A DNA stretch of 64,000 nucleotides from the NCBI GenBank assembly GCA_965221595.1, contig OZ244900.1:3576982-3640981 (forward strand). Direction: 5' to 3'. Shown piece by piece: positions 18,016 to 33,494 of this stretch. The position numbers were made by a program, and so were the translations under genes. This stretch comes from Vicinamibacterales bacterium. Its GTDB lineage: Bacteria > Acidobacteriota > Vicinamibacteria > Vicinamibacterales > UBA8438. Below the pieces are notes generated by a model. That model made no database searches. It saw only the letters and a program-made list of their open reading frames with translations, and was not told the origin of the DNA. The number at the start of each line of letters is the position of its first letter. Position 1 is the stretch's first letter.

Positions 18016-18846
18016 TCACGCACCGAGCGCGTGAAAGGCGATCCACCAGCCGAGAGCGCCGACGAGCACGCCCGATAGACTGTCGATCGCATAGTGGTAC
18101 CGGCCGAGCACCGTCCCGACGGCGATGCCGGCCGCAATGCCGAGCAGTGCCGCGCCGGCCGCCGGCGAGACGGATCCGACCGCCAGCCCCACCGCCGTGG
18201 ACGCCGCGGCGTGGCCGCTCGGCAGCGTGTTCACCTGCACGCTCAGGCGGCGCAGGACGGCCGCGTTGAGCCGGCGCAGCAGCGGGTAGGGCGAGCAGAG
18301 CGGTCCACGCATCGTCAGCGCCCTCGGCGGCCGGGTTTGAATCCACGGCAGCATGCCGTAGCAGGCGAACGACGCAACCAGCGCCGCCGTCCAGAAATCG
18401 TCAGCGCGGGACCGCTGTCCAAACGCCACGAGCAGGCCGAACCCGGCCGGGACCAGCGGGTAGGCCAGCAGGTAGGCCAGCTCGAAGCCGGAGCAGACGA
18501 TGCGCGGGGTGCGTGCCACGAGACGGCCCAGCCGGCCGCCTCCGAACAGCCACGTGTCGACGGCCAGCAGGCGCCGCTCGACCGCCGGCATCGGCCGGCG
18601 GTAGAAGAGGCCGCAGAGCCAATAGCCCTGCAGCAGGTAGACGGCGGGCAACCACTCGCGCAGGAGCTCCAGGCTCGGCGACGGCCGCAGTTGCGCGAGC
18701 ATGAGCACGAGCGCGATGCAGACCAGACCAACCAGCACCACCCGCCGCCTGGCGGCGACGGCCAGCGGCTGGACGCGCGAGAGCACGACCAGGTAGGCGA
18801 AAAAGCCGCAGACCACCCACTCGCTCGTCCAGAGTTCGAGCTGCAT
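18016..18846 (-). CDS. PAP2-family membrane phosphatase
   Basis: 276 aa and polytopic. PAP2 motifs PSGH and GRYHYAIDSLSG (SR-x5-H-x3-D-like) are present. Confidence 0.8.
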   Translation of the reverse strand: MQLELWTSEWVVCGFFAYLVVLSRVQPLAVAARRRVVLVGLVCIALVLMLAQLRPSPSLELLREWLPAVYLLQGYWLCGLFYRRPMPAVERRLLAVDTWLFGGGRLGRLVARTPRIVCSGFELAYLLAYPLVPAGFGLLVAFGQRSRADDFWTAALVASFACYGMLPWIQTRPPRALTMRGPLCSPYPLLRRLNAAVLRRLSVQVNTLPSGHAAASTAVGLAVGSVSPAAGAALLGIAAGIAVGTVLGRYHYAIDSLSGVLVGALGWWIAFHALGA

Positions 18847-19028
18847 TCGCGTGCGCCTCGTCGGATGCGCAACGGTATTCAGCGCCGGCTCGCGGTGTCA
18901 ACCGGCGACGAGGCGACTGCTGCCATGCCCGTCCCGGGCCGCACAGCACCGGCGCGCAGGAAGGCACCAGCCGCGCGCAGATGCGACGACAGGTCAGTCG
19001 CCCGGCGGGCACATCGGCAGGGAGAAAC

Positions 19029-19043
19029 TGAGATTCGATCTCA
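19029..19043. promoter_or_regulatory. palindromic operator candidate O1: TGAGAT-tcga-TCTCA
   Basis: Perfect inverted repeat TGAGA-N5-TCTCA, centred about 52 bp upstream of the predicted TSS of the porin operon. Confidence 0.45.
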
Positions 19044-19051
19044 ATCCGTTC

Positions 19052-19081
19052 TTGACCGACCGATCCGGTCGGACATATAGT
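19052..19081 (+). promoter_or_regulatory. sigma70-like promoter candidate for the porin/FMN/ApbE operon
   Basis: TTGACC (19052-57), an 18-nt spacer, then TATAGT (19076-81). The spacer itself is a hairpin (gaccgaccg-atc-cggtcggac). Confidence 0.45.
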
Positions 19082-19094
19082 TCCCCGTTGGAGT

Positions 19095-19109
19095 TGAGAT
19101 CAAGTCTCA
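19095..19109. promoter_or_regulatory. palindromic operator candidate O2: TGAGAT-caag-TCTCA
   Basis: Same motif as O1, with centres 66 bp apart. It lies just downstream of the predicted TSS. A further TCTCA occurs at 19117-21. Confidence 0.45.
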
Positions 19110-19123
19110 ATACTGGTCTCACC

Positions 19124-19162
19124 AAAGAAAAGGCCCGCCGGTGGTGACGCACCGGACGGGCC
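19124..19162 (-). terminator. rho-independent terminator (minus strand)
   Basis: Minus-strand sequence GGCCCGTCCGGTG-cgtcac-CACCGGCGGGCC forms 12 bp with one bulge, followed by TTTTCTTTGG. Confidence 0.6.
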
Positions 19163-19222
19163 GGCTGAACGCCCGGCCGCCGCACGCTGACTGCCTGCGC
19201 CAGGCGCCAGACGCGTTCAACG
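19124..19222 (-). ncRNA. candidate ~100-nt sRNA, antisense to the predicted 5' leader of the porin operon
   Basis: Minus-strand promoter: TTGCGC (19257-19252), 17 nt, TACAAT (19234-19229). Minus-strand intrinsic terminator at 19162-19124. No ORF lies between them. Confidence 0.35.
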
Positions 19223-19283
19223 CTCCTCATTGTAGGAGTCGACGTCATGGCGCGCAACACCGGGCCATCACCCGGGAGGGGTC

Positions 19284-20654
19284 ATGCCGTCGATGTCCCG
19301 TTACGCGCTGTTCGTCTTCATGGTGCCCGTTCTCGCCAGCGCCGCGCCTGTCGGAGCCGTGCCGCAGGACGGTGGTTCGGGTCCCGCCGAGTCGGGGCCG
19401 GCCGCCGGGCTGGCACCGGTCGCCGAGGGCAGCGGGGAATCGGAATCGGCCCTGGCACCGCCGCCGACGGGCGGTGAGCAGGCGACTGACATCGAGGAAC
19501 TCGAGCGGCGCATCGAGCTGCTCGCCGAGGAGGTCGAGCGGCTGCGCAGCGGCGAGCCCGAAATCGACCTGACCGACGACCGGACCCGCGCGCTCGGCCT
19601 CGCCCCGTCGGCGGCCGCCGCCTACCGCTCCGGCACCGGCGTGTCGATCGCCGGCTACGGTGAGATGCTCTATGAGAACTTTGCGTCGGGCACGACCTCC
19701 CGATTCGACTACCTGAGAGCCATCCTCTACGCAGGCTATCGCTTCAACGACAAGTTCCTCTTCAACTCCGAGATCGAGGTCGAGCATGCCAAAGAGATCT
19801 TCATGGAGTTCGCCTACGTCGACTACCTCGCCACCGACAACTTCGGCCTCCGCGCCGGCCTGCTCATGATGCCCATGGGACTGGTCAACGAGTTCCACGA
19901 GCCGACCGTCTTCATGGGCGCCGAGCGACCGGTCACCGAGCAGGTCATCATCCCGACGACCTGGCGCGAGAACGGCGGCGGCGTCTATTACGCCGGCGAC
20001 ACCGTGGCCGTCCGTGCCTACGTCGTCAACGGACTCGACGGCGCCAGGTTCTCCGCGAGCGGCGTGCGCGGCGGGCGCCAGAAGGGCGGCCAAGCCAAGG
20101 CTACCGACATGGCCTTCACCGGCCGCGTCGACATCACCCCCACCCCGGGCGTCTTCGTCGGCGCCAGCTTCTACACGGGCGGCTCCGGCCAGGGCGAGAT
20201 TGTCGTCGACGAGATCCCGTACGGCATCCGCACCTCCATCTTCGACGTCCACGCCCAGGCCCAGGTCCGTGGCTTCGACATCCGCGGCCTTTTCGCGCAG
20301 GCCCACCTGGCCGACACCGCGCGCCTCAATCAGTTCCTCGGCCTGACCGGCTCGAGCGGCGTCGGCGAGACGCTGCGCGGCGGTTACGTGCAGTTCGGCT
20401 ACGACGTTCTCTCGCAGGTCGATGCCGCCGGCGTCGGTCTCTCCCCCTACATCCGCTACGAGCGGGTCGACACACAGGCCGCCGTCGTTGCCGGCTTCAC
20501 CCGCAGCCCGTCGCAGAACAACGCCTACACGACCTTCGGCGTCGAACTCAAGCCGATCCCGAACATCGCCGTCAAGATCGACTACATGTGGGTCGACAAC
20601 GCCGTCGAGAGCGGCGTCGACCAGTTCAACGTCAACGTCGGCTACGCATTCTAG
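19284..20654 (+). CDS. outer-membrane porin-like beta-barrel with an N-terminal coiled-coil segment
   Basis: 456 aa with a GGGAGGGG SD and a signal peptide. It has the coiled segment TDIEELERRIELLAEEVERLRS and alternating beta-strand sequence ending ...FNVNVGYAF. Confidence 0.7.
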   Translation: MPSMSRYALFVFMVPVLASAAPVGAVPQDGGSGPAESGPAAGLAPVAEGSGESESALAPPPTGGEQATDIEELERRIELLAEEVERLRSGEPEIDLTDDRTRALGLAPSAAAAYRSGTGVSIAGYGEMLYENFASGTTSRFDYLRAILYAGYRFNDKFLFNSEIEVEHAKEIFMEFAYVDYLATDNFGLRAGLLMMPMGLVNEFHEPTVFMGAERPVTEQVIIPTTWRENGGGVYYAGDTVAVRAYVVNGLDGARFSASGVRGGRQKGGQAKATDMAFTGRVDITPTPGVFVGASFYTGGSGQGEIVVDEIPYGIRTSIFDVHAQAQVRGFDIRGLFAQAHLADTARLNQFLGLTGSSGVGETLRGGYVQFGYDVLSQVDAAGVGLSPYIRYERVDTQAAVVAGFTRSPSQNNAYTTFGVELKPIPNIAVKIDYMWVDNAVESGVDQFNVNVGYAF

Positions 20655-20671: not shown

Positions 20672-21247
20672 ATGAGGCACGGGATGCGCGGGACGATGGC
20701 GCGGCAGGCCGCGGCGGGCTTGCTGGCCGCGGGCGTGCTGGCTGTCGAGACGGCGTCGGCGCAGTCCGGCCTCGTGCGGCGCGAGGAAGCGCTCGCGGCT
20801 GTCTTCCCCGGCGCCACGATCGCCGCCGACCGCGTCTATCTGACGGCAACCCAGGCGCGGCGCATTGCCGAGCTGTCCGGCGACGATCTGCACACGCAGA
20901 TCTACGCCCGCTACGTGGCCCGGCGCGACGGCGTCGTCGTCGGCCGGGCGTACGTCGACACCCACGTCGTCCGAACCAAGCGCGAGAGCCTGCTCATCTC
21001 GCTGGACGCGCACGGCCGCGTGCGGCGCATCGACGTGACCGCGTTCCTCGAGCCCGCCGAGTACCTGCCGCCGGTGCGGTGGATCGAGCAGTACCACGAG
21101 CGGTCGCTGAGCGACGATCTCGCGATCATGCGGGCCATCCGCCCCATCGCCGGAGCCACGTTGACGACCCGGGCCGTCAACGCCGCAGTGCGCCGGGTGC
21201 TGGCGCTCGACCAGGTGCTGAAGGGCGACGGCTGGCCTGCCCTATGA
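20672..21247 (+). CDS. periplasmic FMN-binding (FMN_bind) domain protein
   Basis: Part of ORF 20588..21247 with a signal peptide. The segment IAGATLTTRAV matches the GAT(S/T) flavinylation motif used by ApbE on NqrC/RnfG-type domains. Confidence 0.7.
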   Translation: MRHGMRGTMARQAAAGLLAAGVLAVETASAQSGLVRREEALAAVFPGATIAADRVYLTATQARRIAELSGDDLHTQIYARYVARRDGVVVGRAYVDTHVVRTKRESLLISLDAHGRVRRIDVTAFLEPAEYLPPVRWIEQYHERSLSDDLAIMRAIRPIAGATLTTRAVNAAVRRVLALDQVLKGDGWPAL

Positions 21248-21732
21248 CCTGGTGGGAGCGCCGCGGTTTCAACGCGTCCTGCGTCGTGGTCGGCGCGACC
21301 GGCTTCGCGTACTGGTACATGAAGTACGTCCTCGTCACGGACGACCCGTTCGCGATCATCAACCACCCCTGGCAGCCGGCGATGCTGTCGATCCACCTGG
21401 TGGCGGCGACGCCGTTCGTCGCGTTCTTCGGCATGCTGTTCCGGTCGCATTCGTTCGGGAAGATCCGCTCGGCGCAACCGGCTAACCGGCGGAGCGGATG
21501 GACATCGCTGCTCGGCTTCGCCGCAATGGCCCTCAGCGGCTACTTCATCCAGGTGACGTCGTCGCCCGCGCTCATCACCGCCTGGATCTGGATCCACGTA
21601 GCCACCGGCACCCTGTTCGTCATCGGCTACGGCGTCCATCTCGTCAACCGCTGGCGGATCGGGAAGCGCCCTGCCCGGCGGGTTGCCCCGACACCGGCCG
21701 CGTTGCCCGGAGCGGCGCGCCTCGCGCCATGA
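21244..21732 (+). CDS. small 4-TM membrane protein with conserved-looking TM histidines (DUF4405-like, possible b-heme carrier)
   Basis: MTWWERRGFNASCVVVGATGFAYWYM... has four hydrophobic helices. Histidines occur in or near helices (INHPW, SIHLV, WIHVA, GVHLV). An ATGA start/stop overlap with the upstream gene indicates translational coupling. Confidence 0.65.
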   Translation: MTWWERRGFNASCVVVGATGFAYWYMKYVLVTDDPFAIINHPWQPAMLSIHLVAATPFVAFFGMLFRSHSFGKIRSAQPANRRSGWTSLLGFAAMALSGYFIQVTSSPALITAWIWIHVATGTLFVIGYGVHLVNRWRIGKRPARRVAPTPAALPGAARLAP

Positions 21733-22742
21733 AGGCGGTCGCCGCGGTCGCCAGCGTGTTCTGCCTTGCCGCGTTCGCGCAGCCGGCCGCTCCCGTGCGC
21801 GTCGAGCGCACGGTCTTCCTTATGGGCACCGCGGCCACCCTGGTCGCCGAGGCTTTCGACCGCGCAACCGGACTCGAGTACCTGGAGCGGATGGTGCGCA
21901 TCATGGAAGCCACCGAGGCGGAGCTCAGCACCTGGCGGGACGACACCGGCCTGAGCCGGCTGAACCGCCAGCCGCTCGGCGTGCCCCGTGCGGTGTCGCC
22001 GTCCGTGTGCGGCCTGCTCGACCGCCTCGCGGCGTGGCAGCAGGCTACCGCCGGCGCCTTCGATCCGGCCGTGGGGCGCCTCGTAGAAGCGTGGGGACTG
22101 CGCGCGATCGGCCGCCGCCCCGGCACCGCGGCACTCGCGAGCGCTAGGGCGCGCACCGGCCTGCAGCACCTGACGATCGATGCCGCCGCGTGCACGGTTG
22201 TCCGGCGCGCCGACGTCACGCTCGACGCCGGCGCATTCGGCAAGGGCGAGGCGCTCGACCGCGTGCGCGACGGCCTGGGCGGCCGGCGCGGCGCCTGGCT
22301 CATCGATTTCGGCGGACAGGTAGCGGTCGCGGGCGAACGGTCCGCCGGCGCCTGGCCGGTGGCCATTGCACACCCGGAGCGGCGCGCGGTGCCCGTCGCC
22401 GAGCTGCGGCTCGCCGCGGGCTCGCTGGCCACCAGCGGCGGCTCGGAGCGGAACCTCACGCTCGACGGCGGTGAGGGCATCGGCCACGTCCTCGATCCGC
22501 GCACCGGCGCGCCGGTCGGTCGACGCGGCTCGGTCGTGGTCTGGCATCGGGACGCCTTCGCGGCCGACGTCCTGTCCACGGCGCTCCACGTGATGGGACC
22601 CGACGGCGGGCTGCCCTGGGCCGCAGAGCGCGGCATCGCGGCCTGCTTCGTGCTGCCGGGCGCTGCGCCCGACGAGGTTGCGTTCCGGGCGACGCCGGCC
22701 TTCGAGAGACGCTTCGCGTTGCCGGCACCGGCGGGGCGATAG
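21729..22742 (+). CDS. apbE: FAD:protein FMN transferase (ApbE family)
   Basis: MKAVAAVASVFCLAAFAQ... then RTVFLMGT...STWRDDTGLSRLN...FDPAVG...LDAGAFGKGEALD...TSGGSER are typical of ApbE. The start overlaps the upstream stop as ATGA. Confidence 0.9.
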   Translation: MKAVAAVASVFCLAAFAQPAAPVRVERTVFLMGTAATLVAEAFDRATGLEYLERMVRIMEATEAELSTWRDDTGLSRLNRQPLGVPRAVSPSVCGLLDRLAAWQQATAGAFDPAVGRLVEAWGLRAIGRRPGTAALASARARTGLQHLTIDAAACTVVRRADVTLDAGAFGKGEALDRVRDGLGGRRGAWLIDFGGQVAVAGERSAGAWPVAIAHPERRAVPVAELRLAAGSLATSGGSERNLTLDGGEGIGHVLDPRTGAPVGRRGSVVVWHRDAFAADVLSTALHVMGPDGGLPWAAERGIAACFVLPGAAPDEVAFRATPAFERRFALPAPAGR

Positions 22743-32467: not shown

Positions 32468-32633
32468 TTCAGGGCCGGTGGCACAAGTCCCCGCTGCATG
32501 CGACGGGCGCTGCATCCCGCCTGACTGCGTTGCTCGCCGGTCGAATAGGCCCAATCGGCTCCCTCGTCGCGCCTTGCCAGGCCGGCGCCGCGCCCGTCTC
32601 GGTGCGACGCCGGCTTTCACCAGCAGCTGCTAG
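32468..32633 (+). repeat. full-length copy B of the dispersed ~165-bp intergenic repeat
   Basis: ggccggtggcacaagtccccgc...gggcgctgcatcccgcctgactgcgttgctc...cgcccgtctcggtgcgacgccggctttcaccagcagctgctag. Confidence 0.85.
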
Positions 32634-32667
32634 TGATATTGCGTCTCAGTTACAGAAACGCTAGGAT
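32634..32667 (+). promoter_or_regulatory. bfd promoter candidate with an overlapping TGATAT-tgcg-TCTCA box (Fur-box-like)
   Basis: The box spans 32634-32648. The promoter is TTGCGT (32639-44), 17 nt, TAGGAT (32662-67). ATG 32677 follows without an SD. Confidence 0.4.
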
Positions 32668-32676
32668 CTGTTTCCC

Positions 32677-32928
32677 ATGCAGTTGGCGGTCGAGCCCCGG
32701 GTCACTCAGCAGCCGGCGCCTCGCGAAGGCCGGTACGTCTGCGCCTGCCTGCGGATCACCGAGCGCGAGCTGCTGGGTACGCTGGCGAGCACGAACGTGC
32801 GCACCCTGCAGGACCTGCGGCGCACCATCGGCGCCGGCGACGGCTGCACGGCGTGCCACCCCGCGCTGCAGCGCTACCTGGACACGGCTGGTCAGCCGTC
32901 GTGTCCGCCCATCTGCTCCGCCAGGTAG
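32677..32928 (+). CDS. bfd: Bfd-like [2Fe-2S]-binding domain protein (bacterioferritin-associated ferredoxin)
   Basis: 83 aa with the Cys pattern C-x-C ... C-x2-C (YVCACLRITEREL...GDGCTACHP). Confidence 0.8.
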   Translation: MQLAVEPRVTQQPAPREGRYVCACLRITERELLGTLASTNVRTLQDLRRTIGAGDGCTACHPALQRYLDTAGQPSCPPICSAR

Positions 32929-33371
32929 TTCTGGATGCCGACCTTCTCGATGCGGAAGAGCTGCGTCTCCAGCCAGTCGACGTGCTCCTCCGACTCGACG
33001 AGAATCGGCGCCGCCAGCTCGCGCGTGGCGTTGTCGCCCAGCCTCACGCACAGCTCGACCAGCGCGTTGTAGTGCGTGACGCCCTGCATCTCGAGCTTCA
33101 GGTCGTTCTCGAACTGCTCCTTCACGTCGGTGCCCACGCGGATGACGTCGTAGCGTGCGATCTCGGGCACCCCTTCCAGGAACAGGATGCGCTCGATCAG
33201 CTTCTCCGCATGCTTCATCTCGCCGATCGACTCCTCGTGGTGCTTCTTCGCCAGGTGGTGGAAGCCCCAGTCGGCGCACATCTTCGACTGGCAGAAGTAC
33301 TGGTTGATGGCTGTGAGCTCGACCGTGAGCGCCCGGTTCAGTCCGTCGATGATCTCCGCTTGGCCTTTCAC
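32892..33371 (-). CDS. bfr: bacterioferritin
   Basis: 159 aa: MKGQAEIIDGLNRALTVELTAINQYFCQSKMCADWGF...EESIGEMKHAEKLIERILFLEG. It has a GGAGGAG SD. The 3' end overlaps bfd by 37 nt. Confidence 0.95.
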   Translation of the reverse strand: MKGQAEIIDGLNRALTVELTAINQYFCQSKMCADWGFHHLAKKHHEESIGEMKHAEKLIERILFLEGVPEIARYDVIRVGTDVKEQFENDLKLEMQGVTHYNALVELCVRLGDNATRELAAPILVESEEHVDWLETQLFRIEKVGIQNYLAEQMGGHDG

Positions 33372-33494
33372 TGACTCCTCCTTCGCTGTCCCGCGGAATA
33401 CCGCGTACTCTCGACGCTAGCACGCCGGCGGGGCCCGGAGGTGAGACTGAGACTCGGTCGCAGCCGAAAGTTCGGGCGCCGCACGTCGGACACC

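Follow-up and report, generated by a model that had tools for sequence, protein, structure and literature searches.

Paired Fur-type boxes flank the predicted promoter of a putative iron-uptake operon in a Vicinamibacterales bacterium

The classical Fur box (Escherichia coli, GATAATGATAATCATTATC; Bacillus subtilis, TGATAAT-N-ATTATCA) is a 7-1-7 inverted repeat with TGA...TCA outer triplets, in which each repeat is bound by a dimer, and it is positioned over the promoters of an iron uptake and storage regulon. Certain promoters, such as those of aerobactin iucA and of Helicobacter pylori fur and pfr, carry several Fur operators distributed from upstream of the -35 to downstream of +1, and their repression is graded or cooperative. 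A Fur box of Alphaproteobacteria, the 'Fur-alpha box', was reportedly predicted earlier by Rodionov et al. in 2006. In Caulobacter crescentus, the genome of which has a high guanine plus cytosine (GC) content, the Fur box is a 19-bp 9-1-9 inverted repeat with the core ATTG(A/C)GA-N5-TCTCAAT, the sites overlap promoters, bfd is among the targets, and gel shifts confirmed 11 sites (da Silva Neto et al., 2009; PMC2724300). Further, clusters encoding flavin mononucleotide (FMN)-binding and ApbE proteins together with FTR1 or P19 have been tied to iron assimilation (Meheust et al., 2021; PMC8238504). Here, we analyzed a 64,000-nt stretch of DNA (hereafter the window) from a Vicinamibacterales bacterium of the phylum Acidobacteriota (assembly GCA_965221595.1, contig OZ244900.1, positions 3,576,982 to 3,640,981), in which two inverted repeats, O1 and O2, flank the predicted promoter of a four-gene operon, g1 to g4. 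Acidobacteriota are abundant in soil, especially the Vicinamibacterales, and, to our knowledge, no regulon of this group has been defined experimentally. Our results suggest, with a probability of roughly 0.8, that O1 and O2 are Fur-type operators through which an iron-sensing Fur repressor acts on the iron-uptake promoter between them.

The cores of O1 (TGAGATTCGATCTCA, 19029-19043) and O2 (TGAGATCAAGTCTCA, 19095-19109) were located where an earlier note, made from the window sequence, had described two palindromes of the form TGAGAT-N4-TCTCA. When the 64-kb window was searched for this pattern, O1 and O2 were the only two occurrences, and 100 shuffles that preserved dinucleotides gave no match (mean 0.00). 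The pattern is thus present as described, but it does not give the symmetry of the sites, which is a perfect 6-3-6 palindrome in O1 (TGAGAT-TCG-ATCTCA) and a 5-5-5 palindrome in O2 (TGAGA-TCAAG-TCTCA). The centers of the two boxes are 66 bp apart and enclose TTGACC-18-TATAGT (19052-19081), as the same note had proposed; this was the sole sigma-70-like match in 18700-19400 and agrees with the consensus at 10 of 12 positions. The sites were also correctly recognized as being low in GC, which falls from 70.4% in the window to 54-57% at the promoter region. The -35 hexamer follows the center of O1 by ~16 nt, and the center of O2 follows the -10 hexamer by 21 nt. The start of transcription is expected near 19087-19091; if it is placed 6-8 nt past the -10 hexamer, the boxes would be centered near -51 and +14 (O2 roughly from +12 to +16), and, given this predicted transcription start site (TSS), both are within the stretch that is normally covered by RNA polymerase. 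The coordinates of these and the other features are listed in Table 1.

Table 1. Positions of the promoter elements, predicted operators and genes within the window
Feature	Position	Strand	Remarks
O1, upstream Fur-type box ACTGAGATTCGATCTCAAT	19027..19045	.	30.3 bits; position kept in 34 two-box promoters
-35 hexamer TTGACC	19052..19057	+	nearly invariant in Vicinamibacterales orthologous promoters
Second palindrome CCGACC-GATCC-GGTCGG	19056..19072	.	overlaps -35 hexamer and spacer; putative operator
-10 hexamer TATAGT	19076..19081	+	18-nt spacer
O2, downstream Fur-type box GTTGAGATCAAGTCTCAAT	19093..19111	.	27.2 bits
GC-rich hairpin-like element GGCCCGCCGGTG-GTGACG-CACCGGACGGGCC	19132..19162	+	in the ~195-nt g1 leader; at least 20 loci
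g1, secreted 456-aa porin-like protein	19284..20654	+	signal peptide, N-terminal coiled coil, beta-barrel
g2, periplasmic FMN-binding-domain protein	20672..21247	+	FMN_bind E 0.0019, below the Pfam cut-off of 22 bits
g3, 162-aa membrane protein, weak cytochrome b561-like similarity	21244..21732	+	Ni_hydr_CYTB below the Pfam cut-off
g4, ApbE flavin transferase	21729..22742	+	ApbE 1.5e-54
Fur-type box AGTGATATTGCGTCTCAGT	32632..32650	.	21.6 bits; 27 nt upstream of bfd
bfd, BFD-like [2Fe-2S] protein	32677..32928	+	Fer2_BFD 2.2e-11
Ferritin/bacterioferritin-like gene	32892..33371	-	Ferritin 3.6e-35; convergent with bfd
Two overlapping weak Fur-type boxes GGTGAGACTGAGACTCGGTCGCAGC	33440..33464	.	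13.7 and 16.7 bits; 70-90 nt upstream of the ferritin gene

To follow the boxes across species, we gathered 80 loci (L001-L080) orthologous to the g1 cassette. The closest of them (82-86% identity) belong to metagenome-assembled genomes (MAGs) of Vicinamibacterales, and the more distant ones to Terriglobia, Thermoanaerobaculia, Gemmatimonadota and other bins. The earlier note had named absence of the motif from orthologous promoters as an argument against its own proposal; in most of the 80 loci, TGAGA-N5-TCTCA was present ahead of the g1 orthologue, usually twice in Vicinamibacterales. Alignment of 81 orthologous sites yielded a 19-bp motif, A-n-TGAGA-YYNRR-TCTCA-n-T, in which the core TGAGA-N5-TCTCA is accompanied by A at -2 and T at +2. 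A scoring matrix was built from these 81 sites (99.99th percentile of window positions, 5.8 bits), and a softened form of it was used to count boxes in 81 promoters at a threshold of 19 bits. Two boxes 62-68 bp apart were found in 34 of these promoters, one box in 27 and no box in 20.

The geometry of the promoter was conserved together with the boxes. In the orthologous promoters, the center of O1 lies 13-16 nt before TTGAC and the center of O2 lies 19-23 nt past the -10 hexamer, and the spacer is 18 nt long in 29 of 32 promoters. CTTGACC...TATAGT is nearly invariant between the boxes, whereas the linkers from box to hexamer and the 5-nt box centers are variable. The spacing of the pair follows from the distance that each box keeps to its own hexamer. 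The conserved pair and its fixed distances to the hexamers support the suggestion of the earlier note that operators of a dimeric repressor bracket the promoter. Note that O2 is followed, after 5 nt, by a half-site, GGTCTCA (19114-19120). Partly kept among the closest relatives (L005, L007 and L009), this half-site may represent an extension of Fur binding into the leader.

The suggestion of DNA looping, made in the same note, found no such support. As the main mode of repression, a loop in which a repressor tetramer or two interacting dimers bridge O1 and O2 across ~6 helical turns is unlikely. It would account for the pairing of two boxes of similar strength in 34 promoters, Fur is known to oligomerize on DNA, and 63-66 bp is close to six turns; however, spacings of 62, 63, 64, 65, 66, 67 and 68 bp occurred in 3, 6, 5, 8, 7, 3 and 2 of the 34 promoters, respectively, which covers more than half a helical turn without periodicity. 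As all of these spacings were seen, the two boxes must point to the same side of the helix in certain species and to opposite sides in others, and the looped dual-operator repression of the lac/gal/deo type, for which an integral-turn spacing is expected, was therefore rejected. Further, the spacing varies through slight shifts of the individual boxes, each independent of the other, with respect to their hexamers, the formation of a 65-bp loop costs much energy unless bending proteins assist, and a single box suffices at 27 orthologous loci.

We compared the motif with known operators of the Fur family. Scored with the matrix of orthologous sites, the highest value among the Fur sites listed for C. 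crescentus was 22.5 bits and that of the 7-1-7 Fur consensus of B. subtilis was 19.5 bits, in contrast to 12.6 bits for PerR and 0.8 bits for Zur. The listed C. crescentus sites include ATTGAGAACCATTCTCAAA and TTTGAGAATGGTTCTCAAT, both of which scored 22.5 bits, as well as AATGAGAACAGCTCTCAAC (acnA) and GATGAGAATGACACTCAAT (bfd) (PMC2724300). In Terriglobia, the genomes of which are lower in GC, the same orthologous promoter carries ATTGAAAATGATTTTCAAT (TGAAAAT-N-ATTTTCA), often arranged in arrays of overlapping hexamers, which identifies the TGAGA form as a classical Fur-type box with G in place of A. In architecture, O1 and O2 are 19-bp inverted repeats with the outer bases TGA...TCA, and O1 matches TGATAATNATTATCA at 9 of the 14 specified positions. 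The boxes share with the classical Fur box the 7-1-7 form, one dimer predicted per inverted repeat, the position at the promoter (about -51 and +14 of the predicted start, at conserved distances from the hexamers), the association with iron uptake and storage genes and, in relatives, the predicted autoregulation of fur. They differ from it in the fourth base, with G (TGAGA) where the classical box has T (TGATA), and in a center that is less AT-rich.

The resemblance to the Caulobacter box extends to the 19-bp 9-1-9 repeat in a high-GC genome, to the same core, to bfd as a target and to the overlap with promoter regions. However, the predicted acidobacterial boxes belong to Acidobacteriota instead of Alphaproteobacteria, are essentially always TGAGA where those of Caulobacter are often TGCGA, and have the center YYNRR, unlike the Caulobacter sites. 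O1 and O2 would thus represent a Caulobacter 'Fur-alpha'-type box in another phylum, arranged as a conserved pair that flanks the core promoter rather than covering it. This arrangement also distinguishes the locus from the multi-operator promoters mentioned above, which it resembles in having sites from upstream of the -35 to downstream of +1: here, the boxes are discrete, exactly two in number and placed on either side of the promoter without overlapping its hexamers, the arrangement is kept across many genera, and an unrelated third palindrome occupies the spacer.

The same motif was found at other iron-related genes in the window. Only five window positions scored 10 bits or higher, all of them intergenic, and they fell into three regions: the g1 promoter, bfd and the ferritin-like gene. 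The box upstream of bfd (core 32634-48, TGATATTGCGTCTCA) is the third site of the earlier note; it was indeed present, with 2 mismatches. The arrangement of bfd and the ferritin-like gene, together with the bfd box, is kept in dozens of metagenomic loci of 49-69% GC. When metagenomes were scanned with the ferritin protein, 80 loci were obtained, 49 of which contained a convergent bfd and its upstream sequence. In 44 of these 49 loci, the 350 nt preceding bfd contained a box of at least 19 bits, and the remaining 116 kb of the ferritin loci contained only 5 other matches (none in shuffles), several of which were upstream of the ferritin gene (e.g., L083, L085, L088, L089 and L091). Stronger overlapping boxes were present at the same place upstream of the ferritin gene in the marine relatives L081-L091. 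No further iron genes were identified by Pfam among the ~37 window open reading frames (ORFs) screened, several of which had no match and which left a few stretches outside the screen. A promoter scan found no consensus promoter in the bfd/ferritin intergenic regions. The 3' ends of bfd and the ferritin-like gene overlap by 37 nt.

In relatives, the motif was also linked to genes of the Fur family itself. In five Thermoanaerobaculia loci (L075, L076, L078, L079 and L080), a box, TGAGACTCAGTCTCA, precedes a Fur-family gene (Pfam FUR 1.5e-32) by 18 nt, and is followed in order by the Fur-family gene, the FTR1 iron permease gene, ApbE, g1, FMN_bind and the cytochrome-b-like gene. Further, a Fur gene with a box directly upstream lies beside the cassette in L071 and L072, so that all 7 complete Fur genes in the cassette loci are directly preceded by a box. 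A Fur-family gene behind a box of this type was accordingly found in relatives only, and the boxes recur at several iron-homeostasis genes, namely the g1 operon, bfd and ferritin in the window and the FTR1 operon in relatives. The best NCBIfam matches of the linked Fur proteins were three Fur equivalogs, ahead of the PerR, Zur and Irr models. The matrix scores, the Terriglobia ATTGAAAATGATTTTCAAT sites, the boxes before Fur-family genes and the conservation of the bfd box all favor the reading of the earlier note that the palindromes are GC-shifted Fur boxes.

It is improbable, on this evidence, that the boxes serve a different paralogue of the Fur family (PerR, Zur, Mur/Mn-Fur, Nur or Irr-like) and that the operon responds to peroxide or to another metal instead of iron. 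Boxes of the different paralogues have a common 7-1-7 architecture, and TGAAAATGATTTTCA, which is seen in Terriglobia, is also the actinobacterial Zur consensus. The linked Fur proteins score below the NCBIfam Fur cut-offs and also match PerR models at 1e-19 to 1e-22; the distinction between Fur and another paralogue therefore turns on the content of the regulon. Ferritin-like genes are PerR targets in some bacteria, but all of the linked or co-regulated genes (FTR1, bfd and ferritin) concern iron, and both the order of the NCBIfam matches and the matrix scores given above place Fur before PerR and Zur.

Still less probable is a regulator from outside the Fur family, of the Rrf2/RirA or Crp/Fnr type, that would recognize TGA-N9-TCA-like repeats. 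TGAGA-N5-TCTCA formally fits TGA-N9-TCA, the iron-responsive operator (IRO) motif of RirA, and resembles the 5-N-5 sites of Crp/Fnr. Against this, a tblastn search of the window and the 80 cassette loci with RirA, IscR and IdeR detected no Rrf2 gene and a single IdeR-like gene, in L059; each of the 7 complete Fur genes, in turn, has a box directly upstream. The flanking A/T positions and the AT-rich center fit the 19-bp Fur architecture. The conservation data all but exclude that O1 and O2 are chance low-GC palindromes, or RNA hairpins with no role at the DNA level. Although O2 is probably part of the transcribed leader and can fold into a small hairpin, no matches are expected by chance, the arms are invariant rather than covarying while the loops vary, O1 is upstream of the promoter, and the same motif recurs at unrelated iron genes.

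Several observations weigh against the interpretation of O1 and O2 as operators of an iron-sensing Fur. A search of the 64-kb window for Fur, Rrf2 or DtxR genes found none, so that the cognate regulator of the source genome is encoded outside it. The NCBIfam scores of the Fur proteins linked to the cassette in relatives are all below the curated cut-offs. In the window, the bfd box contains 2 mismatches and those at the ferritin gene are weak, the RirA IRO motif has the core TGA-N9-TCA as well, and the position of the TSS is a prediction. Finally, the conserved palindrome in the promoter spacer, described below, suggests that Fur is not the sole input and that regulation may exceed simple repression.

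We infer that Fur itself binds to O1 and O2 and represses the predicted, strong sigma-70 promoter between them. When iron is sufficient, Fe(II)-Fur dimers would occupy O1 and O2 and, because both boxes are within the RNA polymerase footprint, would block the binding of the polymerase or its escape from the promoter (occlusion or trapping); Fur oligomers might extend between O1 and O2. Under iron limitation, Fur would leave the boxes and the four-gene operon would be transcribed, providing a probable uptake route in which a channel in the outer membrane, a flavinylated electron carrier in the periplasm, a cytochrome in the membrane and a flavinylating enzyme would take part. The same regulator would control bfd, and probably also the ferritin gene, 13 kb away. 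Promoter occlusion by Fur boxes is a textbook mechanism, and the conceptual surprise is accordingly small: the Fur-box pair is real and well supported, but it belongs to an ordinary type of regulatory switch. Its value is that the 19-bp motif, with TGAGA- and TGAAA-type variants that track genome GC, provides a usable Fur-box model for Acidobacteriota. It anchors three predicted regulon members and flags a conserved, unannotated four-gene cassette as a putative Fur-controlled iron-uptake system. Iron regulation in these bacteria would thereby become directly testable, and thousands of 'hypothetical' porin-like proteins could be better annotated.

The four genes of the operon were examined individually. 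The g1 protein matched no Pfam or NCBIfam family, and its orthologues are annotated as hypothetical protein everywhere. Its AlphaFold model contains an N-terminal coiled coil and ~18 predicted beta-barrel strands, at a mean predicted local distance difference test (pLDDT) score of 53, which indicates low confidence; note that this strand number, from a model of pLDDT 53, compares with 16 in the trimeric general porins. With this low-confidence model, the best PDB matches in Foldseek were the general porins OmpT, OmpC, OmpU and OmpM1 (E about 1e-9; target-normalized TM-score ~0.6 for OmpT, OmpC and OmpU). The term 'porin operon', which the earlier note had used, is thus moderately supported: the structural matches speak for it, and the lack of a family match and the low pLDDT against it. 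The calls of g2, g3 and g4 were based on codon-position GC and translation, and their stop and start codons overlap, as in the start codon of g3 and the stop codon of g2. The FMN_bind match of g2 is weak in the window, and its orthologue in L075 scored above the cut-off (6.8e-5). The g2 protein carries a C-terminal ...IAGATLT... motif and is presumed to be a substrate of ApbE.

The cassette g1-g4 is kept in 69-77 of the 80 loci, in contrast to its upstream neighbor, which is not conserved. We infer that g1-g4 probably constitutes a reductive iron-uptake module, because the cassette is joined to FTR1 and fur in relatives and because this fits the association of FMN-binding/ApbE clusters with iron assimilation (PMC8238504). 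In common with the flavinylation-associated clusters, FMN_bind and ApbE occur together here, and FTR1 adjoins them in the Thermoanaerobaculia relatives. Unlike those clusters, the cassette lacks P19, adds a porin-like and a small cytochrome-b-like protein and, in the genome of the window, is not adjacent to FTR1.

A second perfect palindrome lies within the 18-nt promoter spacer and overlaps the -35 hexamer, and its arms can be extended to 19053-19062 and 19066-19075. The exact arms CCGACC/GGTCGG were present in 21 loci, and the looser form CCGAC-N7-GTCGG was present at the g1 promoter in ~33 loci of Vicinamibacterales. The arms are conserved, while the center varies (GATCC, GGATC, AAAAA, TAAAT and others). 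CCGAC-N7-GTCGG occurs once in the window and almost nowhere else in 160 loci. This palindrome is unrelated to the Fur boxes and new, and a second dimeric DNA-binding protein, specific to the g1 promoter, probably uses it as its operator. A MerR-type arrangement was rejected: the spacer is 18 bp, not 19-20 bp, in 29 of 32 promoters, and the palindrome is off-center (at 19064) and overlaps the -35 hexamer. In L053 and L068, from bins labeled Woeseiaceae and uncultured Acidobacteria, the O1/O2 pair is kept 66 bp apart, and the CCGACC palindrome is replaced by another spacer sequence (CCTTCC...GGAA-like), so that the spacer element changes in evolution independently of the Fur pair.

The spacer palindrome is the part of the locus that is likeliest to yield something new. 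A tentative and more speculative extension of the Fur reading is a dual-input switch with three operators, in which the two Fur boxes and the spacer palindrome, bound by a second regulator, would jointly control an undescribed reductive iron-uptake route widespread in Acidobacteriota, and to which a hairpin in the leader may add a third layer. The hairpin-like element in the g1 leader is followed by a conserved GCTGAACGC at 19164-19172. Covariation analysis of its arms revealed 0 compensatory pairs, and the element may function as RNA or as DNA. An Rfam search detected no riboswitch or small RNA at the gathering threshold in the whole window or at the E-value threshold in 18850-19320, where P37 was the only match, at chance level (E 0.67). 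A role as a terminator was rejected, as the + strand has no T-run and the A-run that precedes the element is not conserved in a second group of loci. In some loci, this A-run before the hairpin gives the appearance of an intrinsic terminator on the minus strand.

Individual loci showed further variation around the cassette. Additional box matches in L015, L061 and L077 revealed no new regulon members, and the neighboring genes in L015 had no Pfam match. The match in L077 (4997-5015) is a strong Fur-type box of 27 bits inside the cassette, between the FMN_bind and membrane-protein genes, which suggests an internal regulated promoter in that lineage. In L059, an Acidobacteriota MAG with a weak Fur-type box only, a gene for a DtxR/IdeR-family regulator (187-564) lies just upstream of the cassette and may encode an alternative metal regulator of the same genes. 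The DNA that separates the Fur-box promoter from the divergent PAP2 gene is ~1.3 kb longer in the closest relatives, L001-L009 (about 1257-2742), than in the window (18846-19029), which points to an insertion or deletion beside the promoter. In L061, a Terriglobia MAG, an insertion sequence (IS) element with two DDE_5 transposase ORFs, possibly frameshifted, lies between the Fur box and promoter and the g1 orthologue (1162-2878).

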